A stretch of DNA of 64,000 nucleotides. Source: an uncultured Acidobacteriota bacterium (lineage in GTDB: Bacteria > Acidobacteriota > Polarisedimenticolia > JACPZX01). The notes under the pieces were generated by a model that was not told where the DNA came from, did not search any database, and saw nothing but the letters and a program-made list of their open reading frames with translations. Position 1 is the stretch's first letter. Every line of letters starts with the position of its first letter. The translations under genes and the position numbers were made by a program. Positions 33,723-49,309 of the stretch are shown here, one piece after another. The stretch spans positions 11,201-75,200 of the forward strand of contig CAYNUH010000004.1 in the NCBI GenBank assembly GCA_964400605.1, given 5' to 3'.

Positions 33723-36368
33723 TTGCAGTCAGGTTCTGGCTCGCGAGGAGGCCTGTTGACAGGCAGAGGCCCTGGGTTCCGCGCCGCGAGGGTCAGCCTT
33801 CCCGCCCTGATCAGCGCCCTGTTCGTGTGCACGACCGGCGCGCAGGCCGTGATCGTGCGCGTCGATCCGAACTCGATGCGGGTGCAGAGCGTCTTCCACA
33901 ACACCCACCTCGCCACCCTGACTCCCAGATTCCAGTGGACCTTTCCCGGGACGGGGACCCAGACCAACTGGCAGATCCAGGTCGACTCCAGTCCCCAGTT
34001 CAACGGGCACAACGGGGAGATCTGGTTCTGGGACAGCGGCGTGGCCGACAAGGGAACGCTCGACTCCGACACCGACGTCGCCTACTCCACCCCGAACGCG
34101 CCCGGAAAGTTCCCGCGATCGCTCGACACACGGGCCGATCTCATTTACTGGCGGGTCCGCGTGCAGCAGGACAACGACGCCAACTGGGACAAGGACCCGA
34201 ACGACTTCGCCGTCGGCGTCTTCAAGCTCAATCAGATACCGCTCTCGCCCGACAATCTGACCGCGACCGTGGATCCGAACGCGGGCACCATTGCGGGTTT
34301 CACCTTCCCGGCCGTGGTCACGACTCCCCGCGAGCTTTTCGTGGCGACCAACGGAGACGACGCGAACCCGGGCACCCTGGCCCTGCCGTTTCGCACCATC
34401 ACCTTCGGCGCCAAGGCGCTGCTGCCGGGCGACACGCTGACGATCCGGGGGGGCACCTACAACGAGAACGTGCGACTCAGCCCGACGCCGACGACCGGCG
34501 TGAAGAACGGCACGGCCGGCAACCCCATCACGATCCGGGGCCGGCCCGGGGAGTCGGTCATCGTCCGCGGCGTGTCGGCCGGGAGCTCCCCCTTCGCGCC
34601 GTTCTCTTTCATCGGCTCGCCGGTCGCCATCACCAACTGGATCCTCGACGGGGTCAAGCTGGGCGGGGGAACGGCGGTCTCCCACGGAATCTTCGTCAAC
34701 TTCGCGGAGCATCTCACCATCAGGAACATCTCGTTCGAGTCCACCTTCAACCCTTCCGGGACAGGCATCCAGATCCTCGGCAGTGGGTCCGGCAACCGGA
34801 TCCTGAACTCGAAGCTCGACACCAGGATGTTCGACCAGATCGACATCACCGGATCGAAGCACGTGGAGATCCGCAACAACGAGTTCACCGGAGGCAACGG
34901 CCACGTGGCCATCCACTGGCACAACAGCGGGGGCCAGGCCGGCATCATCGAGGGGAACCGCTTCCACGACTTCACCGCCACCGAGGGCGCCATCTTCGTC
35001 TACCTGTCCGGTGACGGGATGGTGGTCCGGAACAATGTCTTCCTCAACGTCTCGGAGACGGCCGGCGGCTACAACGCAGGCATCGTCGTCCTCCGGTGCG
35101 GGAAGATCCTCATCGAGAACAACACTTTCGTGAACATCACCCGAGGCGTCGGCCTCGCCGAGTTCGCGCGCTTCTCCATCGTCCGGAACAACATCTTCTT
35201 CAACACCACGAAAACCGCCATCGATTTCACGCTGCTGCAGAGCGCCCAGCAGGGATCGAGCACCGTTGGGTTCGTGGTGGACCACAACCTCTTCTTCGAC
35301 AACACCAAGGACACCGACTATTCCGCTTCGACCAAGACGGCCGATCTGGCCGACATCACGTACACGAACAACTGCTGCTTCGCCTCGGTGGGAAACCAGT
35401 GCGACGGGACGAGGACGGCGCCCAACGTCAACGCGGCGTGCGATCCGCAGTTCGTGAACGCGGCCGCGGGAGACCTCCACCTCGGCGCCGCCAGCCCCGC
35501 GCGGGACGCGGGCGACCCGAACACGCCCGTCCCCGTGGGCGGCGGATCCGTCATCGACATGGGGGCCCTGGAGTTCGGCTCGGCCGCCATGCCGCCGTAC
35601 GACTACCAGCCGAAGGTCAGCGTCAGCGACGTGACGCCGAAGTTCACCTGGAAGTTCGTGGACCGGGACAACGACCTGAACGCGCGTTTCCCGACCGACT
35701 TCCTGGACACCGACTTACATTTCGGCTTCGAGCTTCAGATCGACACGCGCAACACCTTCGACAGCGTCAACGGCGACCGTCCTCTCTTCAGCACCAGCGC
35801 CGCCAACGGCTTCAACTTCGTGGCGTCGAATGATCCGAATGCTCCGAACTACATCCTTCCCGACGCCAATGCCCTTCCGGCGGGGGAGTACTACGTGCGG
35901 GTGCGCAACCGCGACGAGAACCAGGCGCTTTTGGGGGCCTGGTCGAACAACAACTTCCGGATAAGGGTGGCCGCGGAGCCGCAGGCGCCCATCCTCACCC
36001 AGCAGAGTCCCGCACCGATGTCGGTGGGGGTGGACCCCAACGCGGTCGTCTCCGCGCACGTGGTGGATTTCGGCAGCGGCGTGGCCAGCTCGACCATCGT
36101 GATGAGGATCTTCGACTCCGACCCCAACACGCCGGATCTCGTCGCGCCGCAGATCACGCAGGTGGGACCCACCTCGACCGACTTCCGGGTCTCCTTCACT
36201 CCCGCGCCGGGGCGGTTCAAGTCGGGCGACGTCATCACCGCTCAGATCGAGGCCGACGATCTCTTCAGCCCCCCCAACCACCTGGGAGGGACGAATTCGA
36301 TGTGGTCCTTCACAATCCGGGACAGCGTCCCGCCCCTGGCCCCCGCGGGTCTGATCGTGGTGCCCTGA
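33723..36368 (+). CDS. Large secreted right-handed beta-helix protein with Ig-like flanking modules
   Basis: Signal peptide; FVATNGDDANPGT..PFRTI; LLPGDTLTIRGGTY; IxNNxF repeats; LHLGAASPARDAG..DMGALE; two TPxFxW..QxD modules. Start uncertain. Confidence 0.78.
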   Translation: MQSGSGSRGGLLTGRGPGFRAARVSLPALISALFVCTTGAQAVIVRVDPNSMRVQSVFHNTHLATLTPRFQWTFPGTGTQTNWQIQVDSSPQFNGHNGEIWFWDSGVADKGTLDSDTDVAYSTPNAPGKFPRSLDTRADLIYWRVRVQQDNDANWDKDPNDFAVGVFKLNQIPLSPDNLTATVDPNAGTIAGFTFPAVVTTPRELFVATNGDDANPGTLALPFRTITFGAKALLPGDTLTIRGGTYNENVRLSPTPTTGVKNGTAGNPITIRGRPGESVIVRGVSAGSSPFAPFSFIGSPVAITNWILDGVKLGGGTAVSHGIFVNFAEHLTIRNISFESTFNPSGTGIQILGSGSGNRILNSKLDTRMFDQIDITGSKHVEIRNNEFTGGNGHVAIHWHNSGGQAGIIEGNRFHDFTATEGAIFVYLSGDGMVVRNNVFLNVSETAGGYNAGIVVLRCGKILIENNTFVNITRGVGLAEFARFSIVRNNIFFNTTKTAIDFTLLQSAQQGSSTVGFVVDHNLFFDNTKDTDYSASTKTADLADITYTNNCCFASVGNQCDGTRTAPNVNAACDPQFVNAAAGDLHLGAASPARDAGDPNTPVPVGGGSVIDMGALEFGSAAMPPYDYQPKVSVSDVTPKFTWKFVDRDNDLNARFPTDFLDTDLHFGFELQIDTRNTFDSVNGDRPLFSTSAANGFNFVASNDPNAPNYILPDANALPAGEYYVRVRNRDENQALLGAWSNNNFRIRVAAEPQAPILTQQSPAPMSVGVDPNAVVSAHVVDFGSGVASSTIVMRIFDSDPNTPDLVAPQITQVGPTSTDFRVSFTPAPGRFKSGDVITAQIEADDLFSPPNHLGGTNSMWSFTIRDSVPPLAPAGLIVVP

Positions 36369-36369
36369 C

Positions 36370-37008
36370 ATGGCGCAGAGGATGACGATGGACGCGCACC
36401 AGGCGGGGGGCCATCCCCGACGCGGGCTGCGGCGTCTCGCCGCACTGGCCGGCGCCTGCCTTGTTGCGGTGCTGCAGCCGGCCGGCGGCGCGCCGGAAAG
36501 AGGATCGCGCGATCCTTCGGTGCGGACCGCCGCCGCAGCCGAGCGCGTCACCGGACGCAAGGCCACGAAAGGCCGGAGGAGCCCGAGGCTGTTCCAGCCG
36601 CGCATTCTTCCTGTTGTCATCCCTTCCTTCCAGGCGATCGCGGAGCCTGACACGGCGATGGTCGGCGGTCGCGTGCTCGTCACGGTGCGCCTGGTGGCCG
36701 GGCAAGGCGCCGCGCGGCACGCGGCCGTTCACGTGGGGGCGGACCCGTCCCTCCTGCGCTATCTGGGGGTGCGCGCGACGGGGCGGGGGGCGCTGATCGC
36801 GGAGCCCTCCTCGGTGGACGGCGAGTTGGTGGTGTACCGGTCGTCCCTTCCGGAAGGGTTCGCGCAGAGCGAGGCGATCGTGGAGATCGAGTACGAGGCC
36901 CTCGCGCCGGGCTCGTGCTCGATTGTTCTGACGGGGGTCCGGCTGATGGACGGTCGGGCAAGAGACCTGCGGGTGACCTATGACGCGGCAAGCCTGGTCA
37001 TCGAGTAG
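36370..37008 (+). CDS. Exported cohesin-like domain protein
   Basis: C-terminal beta-sandwich (VTVRL, DPSLLRY, EIEYEALAPGSCSI) resembling cohesin domains. Confidence 0.55.
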   Translation: MAQRMTMDAHQAGGHPRRGLRRLAALAGACLVAVLQPAGGAPERGSRDPSVRTAAAAERVTGRKATKGRRSPRLFQPRILPVVIPSFQAIAEPDTAMVGGRVLVTVRLVAGQGAARHAAVHVGADPSLLRYLGVRATGRGALIAEPSSVDGELVVYRSSLPEGFAQSEAIVEIEYEALAPGSCSIVLTGVRLMDGRARDLRVTYDAASLVIE

Positions 37009-37843
37009 GCTCCGGGGCGCCGCCGCGGCGGTCTGCGTCGCGATCGCGGCGTGGGGGGGAGTGTTCGCGCAGGCGCTCGGCAGCGTCCACATCGCCTGGA
37101 ACGCCAACGACCCCAACATCGACCCCGACCTGGCCGGATACAGGATCTACGTGGACGACGATCCCAACACCTTCAACCTCGCGCCCAGCGCGGCGAAACC
37201 GCTGTCCCGCACCATCGACGTCGGATCCTCCGTGACGGACCAGATCGTCACCAGCCTCGACCCGAACAAGGTCTTCACCTTCGCGGTCACGGCGCTCGAT
37301 CTCAGCGGCAACGAGAGCGGGTTCTCCAACCGGGTCAGCCAGCAGCCCAGCATTCTTCCCATCGTGCGTTCCGTGGCGCCGGCCTCGGCGACACAGGGCG
37401 ATCCCAACGTGCCGGTCACCATCTCGGGGGCGAACTTCCTCTCGACGAGCACCGTGAGCTTCGGAACCGGAATCACCGTCGGCGCTCCCACCCTGGGTCC
37501 CTCGGGCACGCTCCTGGTAACGGTGACCGTGAATTCTATTGCCCAGGCCAAGAGCTACGACGTCACGGTCACGAACCCCGGCGGCTCCGCGGGCACGAAG
37601 GCGGGCGCCTTCACCGTGGACGTGAACCTGGGGAGGCTGGACATCGACGGCTCGAACCGGATCGACGGTGCGGACTTCCTCGACATCCTCCTGGGGTTCC
37701 CCTCGATGGCGGGTGATGCCTATTACAACACCACTCGCGATCTCGACGTGGACGGCGGTATCGACGGCGCGGATCTGGCGATCTTCTTCTCGTGCTTCGG
37801 CGCCACGCGCGCCGGACCCATGCAGCCCTTCATATGCCCCTGA
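36980..37843 (+). CDS. Secreted FN3 + IPT/TIG + dockerin-like protein
   Basis: DLAGYRIY..FAVTALDLSGNES (FN3); VTISGANF..VTVTNPGG (IPT); DIDGSNRIDGADF and DLDVDGGIDGADL Ca-binding pair. Confidence 0.75.
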   Translation: MTRQAWSSSRLRGAAAAVCVAIAAWGGVFAQALGSVHIAWNANDPNIDPDLAGYRIYVDDDPNTFNLAPSAAKPLSRTIDVGSSVTDQIVTSLDPNKVFTFAVTALDLSGNESGFSNRVSQQPSILPIVRSVAPASATQGDPNVPVTISGANFLSTSTVSFGTGITVGAPTLGPSGTLLVTVTVNSIAQAKSYDVTVTNPGGSAGTKAGAFTVDVNLGRLDIDGSNRIDGADFLDILLGFPSMAGDAYYNTTRDLDVDGGIDGADLAIFFSCFGATRAGPMQPFICP

Positions 37844-38508
37844 CGTGCTTCGGGCTTCCGGAGAGGGGCCGCGTTCAGGTCCCGGGATGCCGCGGCGGGG
37901 TCGCGGCGGCTCTCCTCGCCCTGGGCTTCCTCGCCGGATGCGGCGGAGCGCCGGAGGAGGAGTTCGATCTGGGCCCCGTGGGGAGGGGGGTCACGGCCGA
38001 CTTCGCCGCCACACAACCTTCGGCCTGCTCCCCGGGCGATCCGCCCCTCCTCTCGCTGCAGAAGGCGACGGTGCTGGGACCCGTGGTGAACGTGGACATC
38101 ACCCTGAGCGACTGCGACGCCTCCCTCGTGGTCAGCGGGCTCAACTTCGAGCTTTCCTTTGACGACACCGTCATTGATTTCCTGGGGTGTTCGGCGGGGA
38201 CGTTGTTCCCGGCCGGGCAGCTCGTCACGGGGACTCCCGCCTGCGCGGCGTCGGGCGGCAACCTCATCGGCACGATCGCCCTCCAGCCGCCGAACGCGGT
38301 CAGCGTCACGGGTGGCCAAGCCTCCGTCATCCGGCTGACTTTCAGCCTCATCAGGAGGGTGGCCGCGACGGGCAGCCCCGCCGCCTTCATCATGCCGGAC
38401 TCGCTGCCCAACACCAGCCTCTTCTTCGCCGACCCCGTCACCCAGGTGATCCTGCAGCGTGCCCTGGGCGGGGCGGGTTACGCCGGCGGGAGCTTTACTT
38501 CGAACTGA
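37834..38508 (+). CDS. Lipoprotein with cohesin-like domain
   Basis: Lipobox LAGC; GLNFELSFDDTVIDF, VIRLTF. Confidence 0.6.
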   Translation: MPLTCFGLPERGRVQVPGCRGGVAAALLALGFLAGCGGAPEEEFDLGPVGRGVTADFAATQPSACSPGDPPLLSLQKATVLGPVVNVDITLSDCDASLVVSGLNFELSFDDTVIDFLGCSAGTLFPAGQLVTGTPACAASGGNLIGTIALQPPNAVSVTGGQASVIRLTFSLIRRVAATGSPAAFIMPDSLPNTSLFFADPVTQVILQRALGGAGYAGGSFTSN

Positions 38509-38835: not shown

Positions 38836-40191
38836 GTGCAGAAGGAAGGGCTGAAGTGGTGGATCGGGGCGCTGATCCCCGTAGTTCTCATCCTCGTACT
38901 GGCATCCCCGAGCGCGTGGGCTGCGCGCAACTGCAACCCGACGAGGAACGACTGTGAGTCCAGCGACCCCATCACGCAGAGCCACACCCAGATCGGTGGC
39001 GCGGGGTCCGTCTCGAGTTTCAGCAACCTGTCCCCTGGAAGGCTGACGGACGGCACCGAAGGGGAGGCCGACTACGAGTTCACGTTCGACAGAAATACCG
39101 CGACGCTGACCCTCAAGGTCACGAACCAGACGGCCACGCAGTCCACGCTGACGGGCATCTTCTTCAACGTGACTCCGGCCGTGACGGGCCTGACCCTGCT
39201 GTCGGAGGACGGCGTTCTTCGCTGGGTCATGGCCTTCGACAGGATCAGGACGGACGGGTTCGTGGATTCGGACCACAACCTCGTGAACCTGAGGGGCGAC
39301 GGGTTCGGGCTCTTCCACGTGTTCCTGAGCAACAACATCACCGATGTCCAGAGGGACGCCGGTAACCCGGACATCGAGATCCTCCCGGGCGACATGGTCA
39401 CGTTCGTCTTCAGGGTCAGCGGCGATCTCCCGAAGATCACGGCCTGCTCCTTCACGTCGGTGGGTTCGCTCGTCCCGCCCGGCGACAAGATTCAGGTCGC
39501 GCTCGGGCGGTTCCAGGCCGGCGTGCAGGGCGGCAGCGGGTTCATCGGCCCGTGCCAGGGCGGCCCGCTGGCCGTCACTCTGGCCGGATTCTCCGCCACC
39601 CCGGGCGAGGGCCGGGTCACTCTCGGGTGGTCCACCGCGTCGGAGAGCAACAACGCCGGGTTCCGGATCCTCCGGAAGGATCTCCGGACGCAGCAGATCA
39701 TCGCTCTGAACACGTTCATGATCCCGAGCCAGGGGGACAGCGTGAGCGGCGCGGACTACAGCTACATCGACGACACCGCGGTGAACGGACGGAAGTACCA
39801 CTACTTCCTCGAGGACTGGGACCTTGAGGGTCAGAACACGATTCACCGGCCGGAGCTGGCGATCCCCAACCCGGTCCGGCCGCCGGTGCGGCTGTTGTCG
39901 CCCGGCTACGACGAGGTCGCGGGCGCGTCCGTGCGCTTCCGCTGGGAGGCGGACGCCCGGACGAGGTTCACCGCCGAGATCTCCGGCGACGCGACATTCC
40001 CCTCCGGGAAGAGCATGAAACTTCGCGCCGGCACGAGGACGACCCTGACGCTGAACACATTCGAGATGCGGCAGATCGCGCGCATGGCGCGCGCCGCCGG
40101 TGAAGGGGGCGTTTACTGGAGGGTGACGGGAACAGACGCGAGGGGCAACGCCGCCCGCAGCCAGACCTTTTTCGTGGGTGTGCAGCCCTGA
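38836..40191 (+). CDS. Secreted protein, paralog A (beta-rich N-domain + PLAVTL-type FN3-like domain)
   Basis: GAGGAGG RBS; signal peptide ending AWA; PLAVTLAGFSA..WSTASESNNAGF..YSYID; paralog at 40795. Confidence 0.85.
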   Translation: MQKEGLKWWIGALIPVVLILVLASPSAWAARNCNPTRNDCESSDPITQSHTQIGGAGSVSSFSNLSPGRLTDGTEGEADYEFTFDRNTATLTLKVTNQTATQSTLTGIFFNVTPAVTGLTLLSEDGVLRWVMAFDRIRTDGFVDSDHNLVNLRGDGFGLFHVFLSNNITDVQRDAGNPDIEILPGDMVTFVFRVSGDLPKITACSFTSVGSLVPPGDKIQVALGRFQAGVQGGSGFIGPCQGGPLAVTLAGFSATPGEGRVTLGWSTASESNNAGFRILRKDLRTQQIIALNTFMIPSQGDSVSGADYSYIDDTAVNGRKYHYFLEDWDLEGQNTIHRPELAIPNPVRPPVRLLSPGYDEVAGASVRFRWEADARTRFTAEISGDATFPSGKSMKLRAGTRTTLTLNTFEMRQIARMARAAGEGGVYWRVTGTDARGNAARSQTFFVGVQP

Positions 40192-40235
40192 GGTCTTGAA
40201 CGAGCGGGCAGCGAGAGGAATGGGCTCAGGCCGGA

Positions 40236-40249
40236 CCCGTTCGAACGGG
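40236..40249. repeat. Perfect 14-bp palindrome
   Basis: CCCGTTCGAACGGG between paralog A and peptide 1. Confidence 0.7.
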
Positions 40250-40289
40250 GGCCCGGATCTAAGGAGTTCAAAAGGAGCGCTGAAGAGCG

Positions 40290-40421
40290 ATGAGAATAAC
40301 GGAGCAAGTGGAAAAACCGGCATACTCGACCCCGAGCGTGACCTCTCTCAAGGAGAGCGAGATCCTCGAGGAGATTGGCCCCGCTCAGGCGTACACCGGC
40401 AATTTCCCGTTCGGTTTCTAG
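40290..40421 (+). CDS. 43-aa RiPP-like precursor peptide 1 (MRITEQVEKPAYSTPSVTSLKESEILEEIGPAQAYTGNFPFGF)
   Basis: Translated by hand; AAGGAG upstream; YxxP leader; C-terminal 18 aa identical to 42502-42633 with only synonymous changes. Confidence 0.85.
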   Translation: MRITEQVEKPAYSTPSVTSLKESEILEEIGPAQAYTGNFPFGF

Positions 40422-40437
40422 GCAGCCTGGTTCGGAA

Positions 40438-40474
40438 CGGGGGAGAGGGACGTGTTCCCACCGCCTCTCCCCCG
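40438..40474 (+). terminator. GC-rich hairpin after peptide 1 (no U-tract)
   Basis: CGGGGGAGAGG (40438-40448) pairs with CCTCTCCCCCG (40464-40474). Confidence 0.45.
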
Positions 40475-40577
40475 CTCCATGCGGCCTAAATCCGGCCCGG
40501 GATGAGCATCCGAGCGAGGCGTCTCCGTTACTCTCCGGGCGGCTCTCCTCCCCGCGCCCACCAGACCTTCTTACGCA

Positions 40578-40606
40578 TTGACCGGCACCTGGAAACACTG
40601 TATATT
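40578..40606 (+). promoter_or_regulatory. Promoter of module 2
   Basis: TTGACC-N17-TATATT. Confidence 0.7.
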
Positions 40607-40794
40607 CCGGGCACTTCGCGCCCACTCAGCAAGATTTCATCAGGGGGACCGCTGGCCCGGTTTCCCGGACGTGAATGGGATTCGAAGTCTTGGCCCGGCG
40701 CTCATCCTCTAACCCTGCCTCATGAGCGCCCGGTGGGGATTGAAGCGCGATTCACTCTAAACTGATCGGCGGATCTGTCTAAACGAGGAGGATC

Positions 40795-42141
40795 ATGAAA
40801 CGGGCTAATTTCATCATGGTGTTGGTCGTCATCGCGGTTGCGGCGAGCTTGAGCTCGCCGGCCTGGGCGCAGCGGCCCTGCATGCCGACGCTCAACAACT
40901 GTCCGAACCAGAACGTCACGACCAGCAAGATCCAGATCGGGGGCGCGGGCTCCCTCTCGAGCGCGGGCGCCAGCTTCAGCAACCCGGGACGCCTCGATGA
41001 CGGCACCATCGCCGAGGCCGACCTCGATTTCAGCTTCGACAGGGTCACGGGGCGGCTCACCGTCGTGGCCACGAACAGGACGACGACGGTCGCGTCGTTG
41101 ACGGCGTTCGGGTTCAACACGACCTCCGACGTGACGGGGATGTCGTTGTTCTCCCACACGGGAACGCTGAACTGGGAGATGGCCTTTGACCGCGACCGGA
41201 CCGACAACGTCGTGGACTCGCACCCGAGCCTCAACCCGGGCGAGCTGAAGATGGACGGCTTCGGCCGGTTCAACGTCTTCTTCGGCAACAAGGGGATCAG
41301 CACGGGGGGCAACGGCGGCAACAAGAACGAGATCCTGGCCGGCAACAGCGTGACCTACGTCATCACAGTATCGGGCACCATCTCCAACATCACGGCCTGC
41401 TCGTTCACTTCCGTCGGTTCGTTCATCCCGCCCGGAGACAAGATCGTGACGGCGGTGGGGCGGTTCCAGGCGGGTGTGAACGGCGGCAGCGCGTTCATCG
41501 GGCCGTGCACCGGCGGTCCCCTGCTCATCTCCCTGTCGAGCTTCTCGATCTCTTCCAGGGATCCCGTCACGGTCGAGTGGCTGACGGCGAGCGAGATCGA
41601 CAACGCCGGGTTCGCGGTCCTTCGCGAGGACATGAGGTCGCGCCCGCACCAGATCGTCCGGCTCAACGAGACCCTGATCGCGGCGCAGGGATCCGACGTC
41701 AGCGGGGCGGCCTATTCCTTCACGGATCCCACGGCCGTGAACGGCAGGAAGTACAAGTACATGCTCGAGGACTGGGACCTGAGCGGGTTCAACACGATCC
41801 ATCTCCCGGAGGTGGCGGTGCCGAACCCGAAGAACCCGCCGATCCGGCTGCTCTCGCCCGGGTACGAAGACCGCGCCGGGGCGGCTCAGAAGTTCCGCTG
41901 GGAGAGCGACGGCAGGGTGCGCTCGACTCTGGAGGTATCGGCGGACGCGCAGTTCCCGGCGGGCTCCACATTGAAGATCCGCGTCGGGGCCCGGACCTCG
42001 CGCCAGCTCACGTTCATGGAGACGGCTCAGGTCAGGAACATGGCCGCGGCGGGCGAGGGCGGCGTCTACTGGCGGGTGACCGGCAGGGACGCGCAGGGAG
42101 CGGCGGCGGTAAGCCAGACGTTCTTCCTGGTCGTGCCCTGA
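40795..42141 (+). CDS. Secreted protein, paralog B
   Basis: GAGGAGG RBS; signal peptide ending AWA; shares QIGGAGS, ITACSFTSVGS..PPGDKI..GRFQAGV.GGS.FIGPC, AVNGRKY.Y.LEDWDL, AGEGGVYWRVTG with paralog A. Confidence 0.88.
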   Translation: MKRANFIMVLVVIAVAASLSSPAWAQRPCMPTLNNCPNQNVTTSKIQIGGAGSLSSAGASFSNPGRLDDGTIAEADLDFSFDRVTGRLTVVATNRTTTVASLTAFGFNTTSDVTGMSLFSHTGTLNWEMAFDRDRTDNVVDSHPSLNPGELKMDGFGRFNVFFGNKGISTGGNGGNKNEILAGNSVTYVITVSGTISNITACSFTSVGSFIPPGDKIVTAVGRFQAGVNGGSAFIGPCTGGPLLISLSSFSISSRDPVTVEWLTASEIDNAGFAVLREDMRSRPHQIVRLNETLIAAQGSDVSGAAYSFTDPTAVNGRKYKYMLEDWDLSGFNTIHLPEVAVPNPKNPPIRLLSPGYEDRAGAAQKFRWESDGRVRSTLEVSADAQFPAGSTLKIRVGARTSRQLTFMETAQVRNMAAAGEGGVYWRVTGRDAQGAAAVSQTFFLVVP

Positions 42142-42161
42142 GAGGCCCGGAGAACTACGCT

Positions 42162-42455
42162 GTGCTGGGCCAGGACATATCGCGGCTCCGGTCCGCTCCC
42201 AGGGGCAGGAGGGACCTGGTCCTGCAGGAACTGGGGGACGAGGGACTGCTGTACGACCGTGAGGGGGCGCTGGTCCACATCCTGAACCTGACGGCTCTCT
42301 TCACGTGGCGGCTTTGCGACGGGACGAGATCGGTTGATGAGATCGCGGCGGCCGTGCGGGATGCCTTCTCGGGGACGGACAGGACGGACGTCCGGCGCGA
42401 TGTCGAGGGGCTCGTGGCGCGGTTCGCCGAGCGCGGGCTTTTGGAACCGTCATAG
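42162..42455 (+). CDS. PqqD-family RiPP recognition element (RRE)
   Basis: LGDEGLLYD..VHILNLTALFTWRLCDGTRSVDEI...DVEGLVARFAERGLL; GGAGA RBS. Confidence 0.88.
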   Translation: MLGQDISRLRSAPRGRRDLVLQELGDEGLLYDREGALVHILNLTALFTWRLCDGTRSVDEIAAAVRDAFSGTDRTDVRRDVEGLVARFAERGLLEPS

Positions 42456-42501
42456 GGGCGGCGAGGTGAGCCGGGTCCCCGTGAGAGGATGTGAGGACAC
42501 G

Positions 42502-42633
42502 ATGACTACCAGAGTGGAGCCAGGGCTTCCGCAGTACCGGGCGCCGGAGATCGAGACTCTCCGGGACGGCGATCTACTGGAGGAGATCGGCCCGGCGCAG
42601 GCCTACACGGGGAACTTCCCGTTCGGCTTCTAG
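42502..42633 (+). CDS. 43-aa RiPP-like precursor peptide 2 (MTTRVEPGLPQYRAPEIETLRDGDLLEEIGPAQAYTGNFPFGF)
   Basis: GAGGA RBS; YxxP leader; directly after the RRE gene; identical core to peptide 1. Confidence 0.88.
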   Translation: MTTRVEPGLPQYRAPEIETLRDGDLLEEIGPAQAYTGNFPFGF

Positions 42634-42780
42634 GAACGGGGGCCCTCCTCCGGATGGCGCCGGAGGAGAGCCGGTGAGCCGAGGAACCCGCCGGCCGGAA
42701 CAGAAGAAGACCTCGAGGGAACGGGGGGAAGTGCCGCGAGGCGCGGACCCCCGGTTCCCTCGTCGCTTTTTGGAGGTTGT

Positions 42781-43995
42781 TTGCGACTCGAGCCCCTGAA
42801 GAAAGAACTCCAGAAGGAGCGTCGGGACGCCGGCCTTCCACCGTCTCGCGATCTCGAGCGCCGGATCTCGTCCGTGGCGGCGGATCGCTACGGGATCCTC
42901 GGCGCGCAGGTCTCCCTCCGGACCGACATGGCGCCCATCCGGGAGTTCTTCTCCCACGCCTACCGCTGGTTCCCTCCGGACTCATCGGGCCGTGATGTTG
43001 ACCTCGCGGCCATCCTCGGCGGCGCAGGCGGCGAGGCCGCCTTCGTCCGCGCGGGCGATGCATGGCTGGATCTCGGGGGCAGCGCTTCGCCCGAGAACCG
43101 GGCCTTCCTCTTCCTTCTCGAGGCCGTGATGGACGCCATCGACGGAAGCATCCTCCTGCACGGCGGAGCCGTCTCGCGCGCCGGGGAAGGGATCGTCCTG
43201 GCCGGTCCCACCCTCGCGGGGAAGTCCACCCTTGTCCTGGAGCTGATGAAGATCGGGCTCGATTTCCTCAGCGACGACGCCGCCCCCATCGAGCGGCGCT
43301 CCGGCCTCCTGCTTCCGTTCCCGAGAGCCGTCGGCGTGCGCAAGGACGGAGCGGAAGCGGCGCTGAGACGGTCCTCCCTGCCGGCATCAGGCGTCCACGA
43401 TCTCCCCCACAAGTGGCTTGTGGATCCGCAGGCCCTAGGAGCGCGGCTCCCCGCGCAGGCCTGCCGGCCCGCCTACCTTTTCTATCTGGAGCCGGAGACC
43501 GCTTCCGGTGACCCCTCGCCCGTGCGCTCGTTCGAGGTGGCTCTCGCCGATCGGTTCGACGAGATCCGCCGTGAAGTGCAGGCGCTGTCGCCGGAGTCCC
43601 TGGAGGAGGTCCAGAGGAGGCCTTTCCCCACGCTGGTCGCGCGTTTCCGCCGTGGCAGCCGCCCCCTCTCGGCGCTCAGCGCCCTCTGGCGCCGGCACCG
43701 AGGATCGATCCTCTTCATCGAGGAGACGCGTGCGCCGGCGCGCCGCACGCAAGGCGCTCCGATCATCGAGCCCGTGGGGGTGGCTTCGCTCCTCATGCCG
43801 CTCGTGAGGGACGTGCTCAACCGCGGCGAGGGGGGCCGGCTCCTGGCCTCTCACTCCGGGAGGCTCACGTCGCTCATGGTGGAACTCGGCACGCTGCTCC
43901 GGGACGTCCGGTGTTTCCGCGTCGCATCCGCCACGCCCGCGCAGACGGCGGCCGCCATCACCCAGGTGGTCGACGAAAGGGGGAAGCATCCGTGA
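42781..43995 (+). CDS. HPr-kinase-related P-loop kinase
   Basis: LLHGGAV, LAGPTLAGKSTL, FLSDD; GGAGG RBS before TTG. Confidence 0.82.
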   Translation: MRLEPLKKELQKERRDAGLPPSRDLERRISSVAADRYGILGAQVSLRTDMAPIREFFSHAYRWFPPDSSGRDVDLAAILGGAGGEAAFVRAGDAWLDLGGSASPENRAFLFLLEAVMDAIDGSILLHGGAVSRAGEGIVLAGPTLAGKSTLVLELMKIGLDFLSDDAAPIERRSGLLLPFPRAVGVRKDGAEAALRRSSLPASGVHDLPHKWLVDPQALGARLPAQACRPAYLFYLEPETASGDPSPVRSFEVALADRFDEIRREVQALSPESLEEVQRRPFPTLVARFRRGSRPLSALSALWRRHRGSILFIEETRAPARRTQGAPIIEPVGVASLLMPLVRDVLNRGEGGRLLASHSGRLTSLMVELGTLLRDVRCFRVASATPAQTAAAITQVVDERGKHP

Positions 43996-46900
43996 GGAGC
44001 ACCCGCCCGCTCCGCATCTTCCAGGCACTCGCCTGTGTGTTGTTCTGCGCCTGGGCCGCCTCGGCGGCGCAGGAAGTCCGCGTCGTCCGGCAGGACGATC
44101 GGTCGCTCGTGCTTCGCGTTTCGGCGCCGGACGTGGAGCTCGCGGCCTACCCGGCCCAGAGGGGCCGGGTGGAGCCGAAGATCCGCGGCGCGGCCTCGTT
44201 CGTCGAGGACTCGCTGCCGCGCCTGCCCTACAGCCGTGCCCTGATCGGCGTCCCGGAGGGGATGCGCCCCGTCCTCACGATCCTCTCCGCCCCCCACCTG
44301 CGGATCTCCGGCGAGAAGATCGCCGTGGCCGTCCACCCCGCTTTCGGCCTCGCCGAGGCGGAGGGGTGGGAGGAGCCGGAGGACCCACCGCTTCCTGCCG
44401 GGCGCTACCCGCGCCGCGCCGCGGAGATCGCCTGGACGGGATGGATGAGGGACCTTCAGGTCTCCGAGGTCCGCTTCTACCCGGTGCGCAGCGCGGGCGC
44501 GGCCGGCGGCGTCCTGCATCACCCCGTGATCGAGGCGCGCGTGGAGTTCGTTGCGGATCCGTCGGCCGTCTCCCCGCGCCGGCGCGGCCCCGCCTCACTC
44601 GCTCAGGGCCGGCGCGACACGTACCGGGAACTCCAGCGGCGCGCCATCCTCAACCCCGACCAGGTCCTGCCCGCGGCGGGCGCCGGCGCGCGCCGCGATT
44701 CCTTCTCTGCGCCAGCCCAGGCGGGGGAGGAGACGTCGGTCGCCGGGGGCCTCGGGCCCGAAGCGGCGCTGATGAGCGTGCCCGCTCCGCTCAAGATCTC
44801 GGTCAACAGCGAGGGGCTCTACCGCGTCACCCCGGCGGACCTCGCGGCCGCGGGCGTCGATCCGAACAGCGTCAATCCTCAGGATTTCCGCCTGGAGTAC
44901 CGCGGGGCCGCAGTGCCCATGGAGGTGCTGGGCGAGTCGGACGCCAGCTTCGATCCGAACGACAGGGTCGTCTTCTTCGGGACCGCCGCCACGGGGCCCT
45001 TCACGAGAACCAACGTTTACTGGCTTCACTTCAACGCCGCTTCCCCACGCGCCGCCTTGCGGGACGGCACGTTCGGATCGCCCGCGCCCACCCCCGCCTC
45101 GTTCGTGACGACGGTGCACGCCGAGCAGAACCTGGTCTACACGTCGGCCGTGCCCACCGCCGCCATCGACCACTGGTGGTGGGGACCCTTCCTATCCGCC
45201 GGTGGAAGCGCAACGTACACCGTGAGCCTGCCCAGCGTCGATCCGAACCTCCACACGGTGAACGTGCGGGTCAACCTCCAGGGGCGCACCTTCCTCTCTG
45301 GCAACCCGGACCACCACACGCGCATCTTTCTGAACAACACCCAGATTGACGACCGCACCTGGGACGGCCAGATCCCCTTCACCCACAATGTCTCGGTTTC
45401 GAGCAGTCTCCTGTTGAACGGAAACAACTCGGTTCGCGTCTTCATGGTGGGCAATGTAGGTTCTCCGGACCAGGTGTACAGCAACTACATCGAGATCGAC
45501 TACAGGCGCACGTACGCCGCGGCGTCGGACTCGCTGATCGCGGACGGAGAGGGGACGGGGGATTTTCGCTTCTCCATGACGGGGTTCACGGCGTCCAACG
45601 TGCTCGTCTACGACGCCACCGACCCGAACGCTCTCGAGCGCATCGGCGTCCCCCCGGCGCAGATAACGGGCGCGGGGCCGTTCACGGTTTCCTTCCAGGA
45701 CTCGATCCTCTCCGACCGGCGCTACGCCGCCGCGACATTCGCCGCCCTGAGGGCGCCGCTTTCCATCGTGCAGGACGCGCCAAGTACGCTCATGACCCCG
45801 TCCAACGGCGCGGACTACATCGCCGTCACGCCCCCGGAGTTCCTCTCCGCGCTGCAGCCCCTGCTCGCCCTCAGGGCGTCTCAAGGGTACCGGGTGCTGA
45901 CCGCCGTCACGGACGACATCTACGACGAGTTCAACTTCGGCATCATGGATCCGGCCGCCATCAAGGCCTTCCTGTCCTACGCCTACGCCAACTACGCGGC
46001 CCCGGCCCCCGAGTTCGTCCTCCTGGCGGGAGACGCCCACGTGGACTACCTCGACAACCTCGGATCGGGCGTGAAGCAGTTCGTCCCGGCGATCCTGGTC
46101 AACATCTCGGGGTTCGGCGAGACGCCCAGCGACAACGAGTACGTCACGGTCGCGGGCGGCGATCTCTTGCCCGAGATGTGGGCGGGGCGGCTCCCGGCCC
46201 GGACGGCCACCGACGTCACGGACATGGTGAACAAGATCCTGGCGTACGAGACCTCGCCTCCCGTGGCGGATCTGAACGCCCAGTCGCTCTTCGTAGCGGA
46301 CAACGATCAGGTGGAATTCGAGGCCTACCTGGGATCGTTCGCTTCCCACCTGCCGCCCACCATGGCCGCCAACAACGTCTTCCTGTCTCAGTTGGCGTGC
46401 CCGTTCAACGTTCCAAGTCCACCGTGCGCAGCCGCCAGGGACGCGATCCGGGCGGGGATGGACGCCGGCGCGCTGGTGACTACGTACCTCGGACACGGCA
46501 GCGTCACGCAGTGGACCGGCGAGTGCGCCTGGGCCACCAGCAACGTCTCGCCCTGCTTCTCAAACCACCAGAACCTGCTCGCCGCCACGAACCGCCCGAC
46601 GTTCATCGCCGCGCTGGACTGCATCAACGGCTACTTCGTGGACCTTACCGCGGCTGGCTCCGGACACGTGAACTTCTCCCTCGCCGAGCAGATGATGAAG
46701 GTGGCCGGCAAGGGCGGCATCGCGGTGTGGGCCCCCGCCGCCCTGGGAAACCTCTCGGACTACTCCAGCATCGGCGATTGGCTGTTCCTGAACATATTCA
46801 ACGACAGGGAGAGAGTCGTGGGACGCGCCGCCGGAATGGCCGTCATCTCGGCCGTGACGCAGCCCTTCCAGCCTGCAAGCATGGACAACATCCGGGAGCT

Positions 46901-47621
46901 GGATCTGTTCGGCGACCCGGCCACGAATCTGGCGCTCGACAGCGACGGCGACGACCTCACCGATCTCGTCGAGGAGGCGGCCGGGACGAACCCGCTGGAC
47001 GGCGACAGCGACGACGACGGCGTCGCGGACGGGCAGGAGACGGCCCTCGGCGCGGACGCGGACGGCGACGGCCTCGTCAACGGGATGGACCCCGACGCCG
47101 ACGACGACTGCATCTTCGACGGGACCGAGCGGGGCGTCACGGCGATCGCGCCCGGCACGAACCCGGGTGCGGGGTTCTTCGTCCCCGACGCGGATCCCAA
47201 CGTCACCACGGATCCGCTGAACCCCGACACCGACGGAGGCGGCGCCGCCGACGGCGCGGAAGACACCGACTTCAACGGCGCCGTGGGGTCCGGAGAAACC
47301 AATCCGGCCTCCGGGCAGGCGGGGGACGACACCGCCTCGGTCCTCCCGGAGGTGATGAGCCTCACCGTGGACGTGTCGGGAGACGATCTCGTCCTTTCCT
47401 GGGGCGGCCTGGCGGCGACCCACCCCTGCGTCCGGTACCGCGTGTACGTCGCGGACGACAACCCGGCCCCGAAGAACAGCTTCACACCCTTCACGCTGCT
47501 GGCCGTGACCTCGGCACCCGGCTACACTCACGTCGGGGCCCGAATCGACGGGCTGAGCCACGACTACCTCGTGGTGGCTTTCGACCCGCTGACGGGCCCG
47601 CTGGGACACTACGGACAGTAG
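43992..47621 (+). CDS. Secreted peptidase C25 (gingipain/PorU-like) with Ca-binding DxDxDG repeats
   Basis: Signal peptide; propeptide-like region; ADYIAVT, DIYDEF, FVLLAGDA, GRLPA, YLGHGS (His), ALDCING (Cys), LFGDPA. Confidence 0.88.
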   Translation: MRSTRPLRIFQALACVLFCAWAASAAQEVRVVRQDDRSLVLRVSAPDVELAAYPAQRGRVEPKIRGAASFVEDSLPRLPYSRALIGVPEGMRPVLTILSAPHLRISGEKIAVAVHPAFGLAEAEGWEEPEDPPLPAGRYPRRAAEIAWTGWMRDLQVSEVRFYPVRSAGAAGGVLHHPVIEARVEFVADPSAVSPRRRGPASLAQGRRDTYRELQRRAILNPDQVLPAAGAGARRDSFSAPAQAGEETSVAGGLGPEAALMSVPAPLKISVNSEGLYRVTPADLAAAGVDPNSVNPQDFRLEYRGAAVPMEVLGESDASFDPNDRVVFFGTAATGPFTRTNVYWLHFNAASPRAALRDGTFGSPAPTPASFVTTVHAEQNLVYTSAVPTAAIDHWWWGPFLSAGGSATYTVSLPSVDPNLHTVNVRVNLQGRTFLSGNPDHHTRIFLNNTQIDDRTWDGQIPFTHNVSVSSSLLLNGNNSVRVFMVGNVGSPDQVYSNYIEIDYRRTYAAASDSLIADGEGTGDFRFSMTGFTASNVLVYDATDPNALERIGVPPAQITGAGPFTVSFQDSILSDRRYAAATFAALRAPLSIVQDAPSTLMTPSNGADYIAVTPPEFLSALQPLLALRASQGYRVLTAVTDDIYDEFNFGIMDPAAIKAFLSYAYANYAAPAPEFVLLAGDAHVDYLDNLGSGVKQFVPAILVNISGFGETPSDNEYVTVAGGDLLPEMWAGRLPARTATDVTDMVNKILAYETSPPVADLNAQSLFVADNDQVEFEAYLGSFASHLPPTMAANNVFLSQLACPFNVPSPPCAAARDAIRAGMDAGALVTTYLGHGSVTQWTGECAWATSNVSPCFSNHQNLLAATNRPTFIAALDCINGYFVDLTAAGSGHVNFSLAEQMMKVAGKGGIAVWAPAALGNLSDYSSIGDWLFLNIFNDRERVVGRAAGMAVISAVTQPFQPASMDNIRELDLFGDPATNLALDSDGDDLTDLVEEAAGTNPLDGDSDDDGVADGQETALGADADGDGLVNGMDPDADDDCIFDGTERGVTAIAPGTNPGAGFFVPDADPNVTTDPLNPDTDGGGAADGAEDTDFNGAVGSGETNPASGQAGDDTASVLPEVMSLTVDVSGDDLVLSWGGLAATHPCVRYRVYVADDNPAPKNSFTPFTLLAVTSAPGYTHVGARIDGLSHDYLVVAFDPLTGPLGHYGQ

Positions 47622-47635
47622 AGGGCCGCAACTCC

Positions 47636-49309
47636 TTGCCCCCGGACGCCCCGCACCCCGGCTACGCGTCTGCGCCCAGGCGCGATCTCTCCACCACGGT
47701 CACGCGCGCGATCCTCTCCCTGTGGGCCCGGGAGGGGAAGTGGGCCGAGGTGTCGCTCGCGGGAGTCAGCATGGCGCCTCTCATCCCCGACGGGTCCATC
47801 CTCACGGTGCGGTTCGGGCGGCAGGGTCTGAGGCGGGGCGACGTGGTGCTGTACGCGCTGGACACGCGGATCATCGCGCACAGAGTCCTGAAGCTCGGCC
47901 GATCCGGCCCCCGCTGGGGCTACCTGAAGGTCAAAGGGGATCCGGTCCGCGCGGGTGAGGCCGCGTGGGTGGCGGTGGAGGACGTCGTGGGCCGCGTCGT
48001 GGCGGTGAGGCGTCCCGACGGAGCCGTCGCCCTGCTGAACACCCCGGCCGGGCGCCTCGCCGGCCGGGCCGCCGCCGCGATATCGGGCTCCGTAGGGTGG
48101 TTCGAGAGCAAGGTGCGGTCCCGCATGGGGGCGGGGAGGAGCCTGACCGTCACGCCCTTCCTGCTGGGGCTGCTCGCTCCTCTCCACCGGCGTCCTCGCG
48201 GGAAGGTGCGCGAGAGCGGTTTCCTGCTGCGGCCGGAAGATCGCTTCCTCATCGCCGCGGCCCGCGTCCGCATGACGGAGGAGGACGAGCAGCGCCTCCA
48301 TCACATGCTGCGCCGGGATGTCCCCTGGGAGTGCGTCCGCGCGGCCGCCTCCAGTCTGGGCCTCGCGCCCCTCGTCTTTCGGAACTTGAGCCGCCTGGAC
48401 TCGCAGTCCCGCGTGCCGCCCGCCGTGCTCGCCGCCCTGGCCCGGAGCGCTCACGCCTCCGGCTGCCAGATGGCCATTCAGCTCGGTGCCGTGGACGCCA
48501 TCCTGGCCGCCCTGCGCCGGGAGGGGCTGGACCCGATCCTCCTCAAGGGGGCCGCCCTGGCGCTGACGCTCTACGACCAACCAGCGATGCGCTCGATGCA
48601 GGACATCGACCTCCTCGTCGAGGAGGGTCAGGTCGATACCGCCCTGAGCGTCCTTTCGCGCCTCGGGTTCCGGGCGCTGACCTCCGGCAGGAGCCCGGCG
48701 TTCTACGCGGCCCACCACCACGCCGTGCCCATGATCGCGCACGGTGGGCGCCTGATCGTCGAGATCCACAGGGGGCTGGTGCCCCCGGAGGAGGGGCTCC
48801 ATCTCGATCCAGCGCGGTTCATGAACCGGGCCGTCCGGGTCGAGGCGCGCGGGTCCTCCTACAGGGTGCTGGCCCGGGAAGACCAGATCCTCCACGCGTG
48901 CCTCCATCTCTCGTACTGCGATCGGTTCGTGGGGAGGGTGCGCGACCTGATGGACGTCCACGCTCTCGTGGATCACGCTCCGGAGGAGGTGGACTGGGGG
49001 CGGATCGTCGAGTCGGCGCAGCTCACGGAGGTGGCCCGCAGCCTCTACTCCTCGCTGGACCTCGCGAGGCGCCTCCTGGGGACGGGCGTGCCCGTGGAGG
49101 TGCTCAACGAGCTGGCCCGTAGTTCCGCCCTGGACCCTCTGGCCGAGCGCCTCCTCCGCATCCTGGCGCGGGCGAGCCTCTTCGCGGGAGGAGGATCGGA
49201 TCGGCTCCTGCCGGGCGCGTCGGCGCGCTGGTTCTGCGACACGCTCATCAAGCGGGCGAGGTGGGGCGCCCGCCTCCGGGACCTCGTGCGCCTCCTGGCC
49301 GAGGCCTGA
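47636..49309 (+). CDS. S24/S26 peptidase fused to a nucleotidyltransferase (NTP_transf_5-like)
   Basis: GVSMAP, GDVVLY, AHRV, KGD, VVGRV; then LLKGAAL...RSMQDIDLLV, VEIH. Start uncertain. Confidence 0.82.
   Translation: MPPDAPHPGYASAPRRDLSTTVTRAILSLWAREGKWAEVSLAGVSMAPLIPDGSILTVRFGRQGLRRGDVVLYALDTRIIAHRVLKLGRSGPRWGYLKVKGDPVRAGEAAWVAVEDVVGRVVAVRRPDGAVALLNTPAGRLAGRAAAAISGSVGWFESKVRSRMGAGRSLTVTPFLLGLLAPLHRRPRGKVRESGFLLRPEDRFLIAAARVRMTEEDEQRLHHMLRRDVPWECVRAAASSLGLAPLVFRNLSRLDSQSRVPPAVLAALARSAHASGCQMAIQLGAVDAILAALRREGLDPILLKGAALALTLYDQPAMRSMQDIDLLVEEGQVDTALSVLSRLGFRALTSGRSPAFYAAHHHAVPMIAHGGRLIVEIHRGLVPPEEGLHLDPARFMNRAVRVEARGSSYRVLAREDQILHACLHLSYCDRFVGRVRDLMDVHALVDHAPEEVDWGRIVESAQLTEVARSLYSSLDLARRLLGTGVPVEVLNELARSSALDPLAERLLRILARASLFAGGGSDRLLPGASARWFCDTLIKRARWGARLRDLVRLLAEA

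Follow-up and report, generated by a model that had tools for sequence, protein, structure and literature searches.

Two overlooked 43-residue peptides of an uncultured Acidobacteriota bacterium as probable precursors of a cyclase-free, RRE-dependent pathway of the LPP type

Linear polyphosphorylated peptides (LPPs), encoded by lppA-K-B-S-D-N in Paenibacillus alginolyticus, have been stated to be restricted to Bacillota (Popov et al., Nat Commun 2026, PMC13381572). Their clusters lie in capsule loci, and their precursors combine a YxxP leader with variable C-termini. The LPP enzyme set phosphorylates and cleaves LppA; the kinase LppK acts on Ser3 of the core, where an S3T substitution is not accepted, and the SpI-like leader cleavage requires the RRE (PMC13381572). 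A second precedent for the pairing of a kinase with a PF14907-type transferase is given by PsmK and PsmN of pseudomycoidin (PMC6993621). Here we compare these and related systems with a peptide locus in a 64,000-nucleotide stretch of DNA, hereafter the window, from an uncultured sediment Acidobacteriota bacterium.

The original prediction had proposed two 43-residue ORFs in the window. Both translate as described, and each carries the claimed Y12, P15 and L20:

40290-40421, + strand: putative precursor peptide 1, 43 aa, MRITEQVEKPAYSTPSVTSLKESEILEEIGPAQAYTGNFPFGF (coordinates including the stop)
42502-42633, + strand: putative precursor peptide 2, 43 aa, MTTRVEPGLPQYRAPEIETLRDGDLLEEIGPAQAYTGNFPFGF (coordinates including the stop)

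The C-terminal 18 residues are indeed identical, and codons 26-43 differ at 9 of 18 codons, at third positions only and with 0 non-synonymous changes (pS 0.72, dN 0). Random placement of 9 substitutions gave a fully synonymous outcome in 0 of 200,000 trials. Codons 1-25 are near-neutral (dN 0.87, dS 1.17) except at P10, Y12, P15 and L20. The constraint on the two ORFs exceeds chance. A GAGGA element precedes the ATG of peptide 2 by ~5 nt, and an additional, third copy of the peptide is present in the same genome (C46:11014-11154).

The peptides form a conserved family that is almost never annotated. Most gene callers overlooked the two ORFs, and a collection of 5.8 billion proteins, queried with peptide 2 at word-search sensitivity, yielded only the window's own two copies, which bears out their description as hidden. 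No Pfam or NCBIfam model matched the six family peptides scanned, the peptide profile had no match in the PDB, and no Rfam family was matched over 38.5-44.5 kb. The proposed homologue search across genomes recovered the peptide in 43 of 61 related genomes; within the phylum, 25 of 301 genomes carry it. A strict motif, written as a fixed-spacing IUPAC pattern and run on 185,579 species genomes, gave 29 matches, 2 of them false, and all 27 true matches are in Acidobacteriota. In public metagenomes, a profile search of 1.84 billion representatives returned 410 clusters with E<=1e-3. Divergence within the family is dominated by third codon positions (variation 0.54, vs 0.32 and 0.25 at the other two), and all four synonymous codons are in use at the invariant Gly, Pro and Ala. 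The simple fixed-spacing motif and the 410 clusters supply a previously unannotated precursor family, and gene callers could use the motif to detect such precursors.

The leader has a fixed spacing, YxxPxΦ followed by 13 residues and GP(A/V)Q(A/G/T). Among the best 150 of the 410 clusters, all show [YWF]xxP-14-G, then GP(A/V)Q(G/A/T) and then a variable tail, which beyond GP(A/V)Q is hypervariable, rich in Gly, Pro and Ser and has a median length of 15 aa. Conservation extends from Y12 as far as the GPAQ(A/G) junction, beyond which the sequence is hypervariable throughout the family. The junction bears Ala or Val at -3 and Ala, Gly or Thr at -1; since this small-x-small arrangement suits the signal-peptidase-fold domain encoded in the cluster, YTGNFPFGF would be the core. 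The proposal that both ORFs are precursors of one mature peptide, YTGNFPFGF or longer, gains from the contrast between conserved leader and hypervariable tail as far as precursor status is concerned, with the cleavage site itself a prediction, and the identical 18 residues divide into half leader (LEEIGPAQA) and half core. Ser or Thr occurs within core positions 1-4 in only 52% of family cores. Distant members lack Tyr35, which was therefore rejected as a modification site common to the family. A natural A-like::TM::peptide fusion also exists, A being the secreted protein described below.

Three genes of the window encode the enzymes with which the peptides would be matured:

42162-42455, + strand: discrete PqqD-family RRE, 97 aa (Pfam PqqD PF05402, 4.9e-13)
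42781-43995, + strand: HprK-like P-loop kinase, 404 aa, with a GPTLAGKST Walker A and an LSDD motif
47618-49309, + strand: fusion of an N-terminal S24/S26 signal-peptidase-fold domain to a PF14907 nucleotidyltransferase (GVSMAP...AHRV...KGDP; PF14907 3.7e-53)

The RRE gene, single copy in the genome, ends at 42455 and so lies 46 nt upstream of peptide 2, as predicted. In most loci an RRE gene is found directly upstream of the peptide gene; in some loci with the order A-peptide-C25-kinase, none was found within the sequence examined. The protein scores below cut-off against the NCBIfam lasso and HPr-rel-A PqqD models, and the solved structures nearest to it are TfuB1 (E 0.007) and LppB (9x8z_B, E 0.36). 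As it is no nearer to LppB than to lasso B1, the likeness to LPP stands without a claim of common descent. The RRE-Finder publication makes no mention of such clusters.

The kinase, likewise single copy, matches Hpr_kinase_C and the TIGR04352 P-loop and gives weak matches to the PDB by sequence alone. Its proposed association with the peptide is strict: of 31 genomes with the peptide, 30 encode a full-length orthologue and the remaining one is 80% complete, whereas of 30 genomes of the same class that lack the peptide, 0 encode one, and presence and absence of kinase and peptide are concordant within the five families that hold both states. A literature search returned nothing relevant on PF14907, on exosortase with PqqD or on HprK-related kinases. 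In the fusion protein, the Ser, His and Asp of GxSMxP, AHRV and KGDP are invariant in 19 orthologues, with spacings of 37 from Ser to His and 20 from His to Asp. A sequence-only PDB search with the peptidase domain was uninformative; Foldseek matched its AF2 model to LexA, SipA, SpsB and human SEC11. The minimal cluster, seen in G038, consists of peptide, RRE, kinase and the S26::PF14907 fusion.

The peptide cluster stands at the end of an exopolysaccharide (EPS) locus and is interspersed with genes for exported proteins:

13624-33639, + strand: co-directional exopolysaccharide locus (CapD, Wza-like, Wzz/GNVR, BY-kinase, UDP-GlcNAc 2-epimerase; further genes for glycosyltransferases, DegT, formyltransferase, PIG-L and Bac_transf)
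33723-38508, + strand: conserved upstream secreted proteins (beta-helix of 881 aa, p218, fn3/CoaZ-repeat protein, lipoprotein-like p264)
38836-40191, + strand: secreted protein A1, 451 aa, paralogue of A2 (56% identity)
40795-42141, + strand: secreted protein A2, 448 aa, with signal peptide, N-terminal beta-sandwich and two fn3/Ig-like domains
43911-47621, + strand: PorU-like peptidase C25, exported, 1236 aa with signal peptide (Pfam C25 5.4e-67, full model)

Peptide 1 starts 98 nt downstream of A1 and is not preceded by an RRE gene. The AF2 model of A2 (pLDDT 88) leads Foldseek to fn3 arrays, and an enzyme role for protein A was rejected, no enzyme fold being apparent in the model. The ~70 homologues of A2 are all called 'hypothetical' and lack a Pfam domain. 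Protein A is confined to peptide-positive genomes, where it is encoded each time just upstream of a peptide gene; many peptide-positive genomes are without it. The C25 peptidase scores below cut-off against the NCBIfam PorU-type models, and its gene overlaps that of the fusion protein in a GTGA start/stop. The order A-peptide-(kinase)-C25 is conserved across families of the class, and the tandem A-peptide, A-peptide, C25 of the window recurs in G046. The ORFs scanned from 8 to 59 kb in the window include no ABC transporter, nor do the genes called in L073. The surroundings of the cluster suggest a role in the cell envelope or the exopolysaccharide matrix.

The likeness to LPP clusters extends over the whole enzyme set. 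In both systems a discrete PqqD-type RRE is encoded with the precursor, together with an HprK-like kinase, an SpI-like (archaeal-type, Ser-His-Asp) leader peptidase, predicted from motifs and fold in the window, and an uncharacterised PF14907 NTP transferase. Neither has a macrolactam synthetase, B2 protease or cyclase; both lie in polysaccharide loci and encode one to three small precursors with a YxxPxΦ leader and variable C-termini. As the enzyme set equals the LPP core set, the earlier reading of the peptides as precursors was essentially right. The systems differ in phylum, Acidobacteriota instead of Bacillota, and in the peptidase, which is fused to the transferase in the window but discrete in LPP clusters. 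The MsbA-like export pump of the LPP core cluster was not found in the window cluster, which adds the conserved fn3-like secreted protein A and the C25 peptidase. The window leader is longer, YxxPxΦxTΦSxxEΦLxxΦGPAQ(A/G) against YxxPxVLxHQxIxFETxxS, with only YxxPxΦ in common, and the window core has only 9 aa, with Thr instead of Ser near its start. An enzyme logic reported in 2026 as exclusive to Bacillota is now seen in an uncultured sediment Acidobacteriota; the locus also brings to light the peptidase-transferase fusion and, where an EPS locus ends, the conserved link to a secreted fn3-like protein and to a PorU-like peptidase. These provide handles for asking whether phosphorylated peptides serve in capsule or biofilm biology as opposed to acting as antibiotics.

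Other systems resemble the window in part. Paeninodin (PadeK) and pseudomycoidin (PsmK, PsmN) share with it an HprK-like kinase acting on the precursor, a PF14907-type transferase decorating the phosphate and a PqqD-type B1 that recognises a [Y/W]xxP leader; the window, however, has no macrolactam synthetase or B2 protease, and its core lacks an acidic residue and a C-terminal Ser. The HPr-rel-A system (TIGR04352 kinase A, TIGR04353 PqqD) likewise pairs an HprK-like kinase with a PqqD-family chaperone. The window proteins are not members, their scores lying far below both curated cut-offs (43.3 vs 200 bits for the kinase, 25.7 vs 35 bits for PqqD). SipW and Sec11-type signal peptidases (S26B) share the fold, the SM-P, HRV and KGD motifs and the predicted small-x-small site; the window domain differs in being soluble, without a membrane anchor, in its fusion to a nucleotidyltransferase and in its presumed substrate, a cytoplasmic RiPP leader instead of a secretion signal.

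We consider it probable that both ORFs and the third copy are precursors of a cyclase-free, RRE-dependent maturation pathway of the LPP type. The single PqqD-type RRE would bind the leader through its Y12-x-x-P15-x-I/V strand, as expected from its family. By analogy with LppK, PadeK and PsmK, the HprK-like kinase would then phosphorylate a hydroxyl near the core start, with Thr36 as the candidate, and the PF14907 transferase domain may, as PsmN does, put a further group on the phosphate. The fused soluble Ser/His/Asp signal-peptidase-fold domain would finally cut the leader at GPAQA|Y to give YTGNFPFGF. The cut site, the residue that accepts phosphate and the product of the transferase are all drawn from analogy. 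Counting against an LPP-type pathway are the Thr near the core start, given that LppK refuses S3T (PMC13381572), the low share of family cores with Ser or Thr in positions 1-4, the missing exporter, an RRE no nearer to LppB than to a lasso B1, the loci in which no RRE was seen within the sequence examined, and the relative GCA_016195325.1, which has the full enzyme cluster and no peptide gene adjacent.

Spurious ORFs abound in high-GC genomes and most gene callers skipped both ORFs, so that an origin of the two by chance in GC-rich DNA, or a conserved element that does not code for protein, has to be considered; this is already refuted by the substitution pattern, with 9 synonymous and 0 non-synonymous changes over 18 codons, third-position-dominated divergence and the use of all four codons at invariant Gly, Pro and Ala, alongside 410 protein clusters and no Rfam match. 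Nearly as hard to sustain, and close to refuted, is the lasso-type RiPP framing of the original prediction, under which a B2 protease would remove the leader and an Asn-synthetase-like cyclase encoded elsewhere would close the lariat. The YxxPxI leader, the lasso-B1-like RRE with TfuB1 as its nearest solved structure, a kinase and PF14907 transferase known as lasso tailoring enzymes, and two full-length Asn-synthase homologues on other contigs would fit it. Yet this 96%-complete genome has no PF13471 (B2) match over cut-off, Asn_synthase occurs only on unrelated contigs with no cyclase near the cluster, and a cyclase was found neither in the ~45 loci examined by homology nor in the genes called in L073. 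An isopeptide ring would need Asp or Glu at position 7-9 of the core, and no acidic residue occurs in YTGNFPFGF or in the longer GPAQAYTGNFPFGF; the protease that the cluster does encode has the S26 fold, as in LPP. The locus encodes in its place an LPP-like pathway of RRE, HprK-like kinase, signal-peptidase-like protease and PF14907 transferase.

Two further readings retain more weight, although we regard both as unlikely. In one, the peptide would be an uncleaved, unmodified small protein whose conserved Y12-Y35 block docks onto the PqqD protein, the kinase or the secreted protein A so as to regulate or chaperone it. The location of peptide genes directly 3' of A-type genes in many lineages, the natural A-like::TM::peptide fusion and the maintained position of orphan copies beside housekeeping genes favour it; against it, a rigid leader with a hypervariable tail marks a processed precursor, peptide and kinase strictly co-occur, the protease-transferase linkage is repeated in the loci examined, and the same enzyme set phosphorylates and cleaves LppA (PMC13381572). 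Somewhat more doubtful still is a role as adaptor of the cell envelope instead of a free product, in which loss of the leader would expose an N-terminal amine and the matured, phospho-decorated peptide, a dedicated partner of A and a C25 transpeptidase, is joined to or processed with protein A by the PorU-like C25, tying A to exopolysaccharide. If true, a RiPP-type pathway would have been put to new use, that of connecting a surface protein with the exopolysaccharide of the adjoining locus. The preserved A-peptide-(kinase)-C25 order, the restriction of A to peptide-positive genomes, the tandem arrangement in G046 and the window, the position closing the EPS locus and the Rosetta-stone fusion speak for such an adaptor, against which stand the peptide-positive genomes and the minimal cluster without A (the latter also without C25), the lack of an export route for the peptide and of biochemical precedent, and the fact that gene adjacency alone is no proof of a shared substrate.

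Metatranscriptome contigs of four runs cover peptide 1 (40129-40425, 40150-40442, 40058-40418, 39273-40630) and one contig of one run covers peptide 2 (42558-42710), these being assembled, unstranded contigs of one study in which DNA may be included. RNA-run contigs over the kinase, C25 and transferase genes were not found, whereas DNA runs cover all three. Three of the RNA-run contigs terminate at 40418-40442, by the first of the following elements:

40434-40478, + strand: strong stem-loop just 3' of peptide 1 (-35.5 kcal/mol, z -3.6)
42714-42772, + strand: intrinsic-terminator-like hairpin and U-run in the gap between peptide 2 and kinase (-45.6 kcal/mol, z -4.8)
40578-40606, + strand: sigma-70-like promoter match upstream of A2 (TTGACC-17-TATATT, consensus match only)

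Orphan copies of the peptide gene hold their position beside housekeeping genes, which were rejected as pathway genes on account of their housekeeping type. Judged by sequence, the neighbours of the orphan copy appear to be BNR/sortilin-like, USP and Na/Pi-transporter-like genes, and a 2-oxoacid dehydrogenase gene is also among them.

Translation recovered the two 43-residue peptides of the original prediction exactly as claimed. They lie on the forward strand in a gene run with the order exopolysaccharide locus, four secreted proteins, A1, peptide 1, A2, RRE (PqqD-family), peptide 2, HprK-like kinase, C25 (an exported PorU-like peptidase) and a 563-residue protein.

13.6-33.6 kb, +: exopolysaccharide locus
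Between the exopolysaccharide locus and A1, +: four secreted proteins, one a beta-helix protein
40290-40421, +: peptide 1
42502-42633, +: peptide 2
47618-49309, +: 563-residue protein, N-terminal domain plus PF14907 nucleotidyltransferase
C46:11014-11154, another contig of the same genome: third peptide copy, MERPELKRGADDRPQYVAPAITTLTEDQVLDEVGPAQAYTGQVPFGF

The RRE gene ends 46 nt upstream of peptide 2, as had been noted. Across codons 26-43 the two peptides have the same residues, and 9 of the 18 codons differ, at third positions only (pS 0.72, dN 0), again in agreement with the earlier description; when nine substitutions were placed at random in these codons 200,000 times, no placement was fully synonymous. 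Codons 1-25 diverge almost neutrally (dN 0.87, dS 1.17) with the exceptions of P10, Y12, P15 and L20. The contrast between the two segments indicates that the peptide duplication is old and that selection acts on the protein. The setting of the orphan copy on C46 is unchanged across four genomes of the order: a BNR/sortilin-like secreted protein flanks it on one side and USP, Na-Pi transporter and 2-oxoacid dehydrogenase genes on the other. In one contig from a DNA run, position 39775 is followed directly by 43037, with 3261 bases absent (from the A1 3' end through peptide 2) and a short side of only 22 letters; this contig may come from a strain without the duplication or be a cross-organism artefact.

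The host, an uncultured acidobacterium from sediment, belongs to the class Ca. Polarisedimenticolia. Of 61 related genomes, 43 carry peptide homologues, and a phylum-wide sample of 301 genomes has them in 25. A fixed-spacing pattern on the invariant residues, searched against the DNA of 185,579 species genomes, gave 27 true matches, all 27 in Acidobacteriota, and 2 more that were chance matches. All four codons occur at the invariant Gly, Pro and Ala, and variation is highest at third positions. When 1.84 billion representative proteins were searched with a profile, 410 peptide clusters emerged at E<=1e-3. The best 150 of these 410 are small proteins, save one fusion, and all contain, in this order, [Y/W/F]xxP, exactly 14 residues, G-P-(A/V)-Q-(G/A/T) and a hypervariable, Gly/Pro/Ser-rich tail with a median of 15 residues. 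Within clades the tails share motifs, among them ...PFGF, ...RLFPGLR and ...MPLDSEWVRR. Pfam, NCBIfam and Rfam contain no model for the peptides, and a word-indexed set of 5.8 billion proteins returned the window's own copies only, confirming that they had escaped annotation; the peptides are a real, unannotated family. At least two cysteines occur in the tail of 18 of the best 150 members (e.g., ...CGSAVTCGIVG), and the leader may be common to several chemistries.

The order A-RRE-peptide-kinase-C25-(563-residue protein) is kept throughout the taxonomic order and permuted in other families of the class. A minimal cluster, peptide-RRE-kinase-563-residue protein, is present in genome G038; in other families the RRE-peptide pair adjoins Wza/Wzc-type export genes, the far end of that operon carries the transferase, and the kinase lies elsewhere. 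RRE-peptide pairing recurs among the homologues, and the kinase tracks the peptide: in a set of 61 genomes of the class, 30 of the 31 with the peptide also encode a full-length kinase orthologue, against 0 of the 30 without it, the one exception being an 80%-complete genome. Presence and absence of peptide and kinase are concordant within the five families holding both states. In the window's genome RRE and kinase are single-copy; Walker A is intact in the kinase, which also carries an LSDD motif. In a close relative, GCA_016195325.1 (L073, 8241-18248), the entire A1-A2-PqqD-kinase-C25-transferase cluster contains no peptide gene, the PqqD-kinase gap holding a terminator hairpin only; that genome's single peptide gene lies on a different contig, at the conserved orphan site.

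Protein A (the paralogues A1 and A2) is secreted and, in the AF2 model of A2 (pLDDT 88), is a three-domain beta-sandwich/fn3 protein. It has ~70 homologues, every one annotated as hypothetical. Protein A is confined to peptide-positive genomes and always positioned directly upstream of a peptide gene. The tandem A-peptide, A-peptide, C25 is also found in G046, from another family of the class (C4:684000-699000), where A-like proteins precede cores ending in ...GDGINNP and the kinase-RRE pair is on a different contig. A metagenomic 383-residue protein (P0194, L088:1934-3085), found on three contigs, joins an LTD and A-like fn3 ectodomain, a membrane helix and a KKRKR cluster to a complete peptide module (YEPPKILTYSGEELLEELGPAQACRGFTCPVSPTP). 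Such a Rosetta-stone fusion hints that A-type proteins and the peptide may work together.

The N-terminal domain of the 563-residue protein has GxSMxP, AHRV and KGDP invariant across 19 orthologues, a pattern we take to be that of Sec11/SipW-type Ser-His-Asp signal peptidases. Its AF2 model (pLDDT 74) matches clan-SF peptidases only (LexA, SipA, SpsB and human SEC11), and sequence inspection revealed no membrane anchor in the protein. In public annotations and precomputed Pfam these orthologues appear as PF14907 nucleotidyltransferase alone, and the peptidase domain is missed. The C25 stop codon overlaps the peptidase-transferase's GTG start codon in the sequence GTGA (47618-47621), which suggests translational coupling.

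The reading of the two frames as precursors is supported and the finding is real. The 96%-complete genome gave no B2 protease (PF13471) match over cut-off, the vicinity of the cluster is free of cyclase genes, and acidic residues are absent from the core; the lasso reading is therefore rejected. Linear polyphosphorylated peptide (LPP) clusters occur in a capsule-locus setting and encode between one and three precursors, which share a YxxP leader and vary at the C-terminus; Ser3 of the core was the residue polyphosphorylated by the kinase, the peptidase cleaved solely with the RRE present, and LPPs are stated to be restricted to Bacillota (Popov et al., 2026; PMC13381572). The window has the same enzyme set, but its host belongs to another phylum, its peptidase and transferase form one fusion protein, the ORFs scanned between 8 and 59 kb include no ABC exporter, its leader is longer and unlike the LPP leader, its proposed nine-residue core lacks Ser, and it adds protein A and the C25 peptidase as partners. 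For its RRE, the LPP protein LppB (E 0.36) is no closer a match than TfuB1, a lasso B1 protein (E 0.007). The most fitting label for the system is a divergent, LPP-like variant, not a proven LPP member.

By analogy, the RRE would bind the leader at Y12-x-x-P15, phosphorylation would occur near the core start with Thr36 as candidate residue, and the transferase might add further decoration, after the PsmN example (PMC6993621). Cleavage between GPAQA and Y would then release YTGNFPFGF. Junction residues across the family are Ala/Val at -3 and Ala/Gly/Thr at -1, which fits the signal-peptidase rule.

Four metatranscriptome runs from one freshwater-sediment study covered peptide 1 (contigs 40129-40425, 40150-40442, 40058-40418 and 39273-40630), three of the contigs stopping at the stop codon or the next hairpin; a fifth RNA run gave a contig over the 3' half of peptide 2. 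No RNA-run contig was found for the kinase, C25 and transferase genes, all three covered by DNA runs. A strong hairpin lies 3' of each peptide gene, the second with a U-run and just ahead of the kinase gene. Coverage and hairpins fit a precursor transcript that is short and abundant, with read-through attenuated, but the contigs are unstranded and may include DNA. An MBOAT-family (AlgI-like) acyltransferase gene (52049-53407, -), on the opposite strand and some 3 kb downstream, may be part of the polysaccharide theme.
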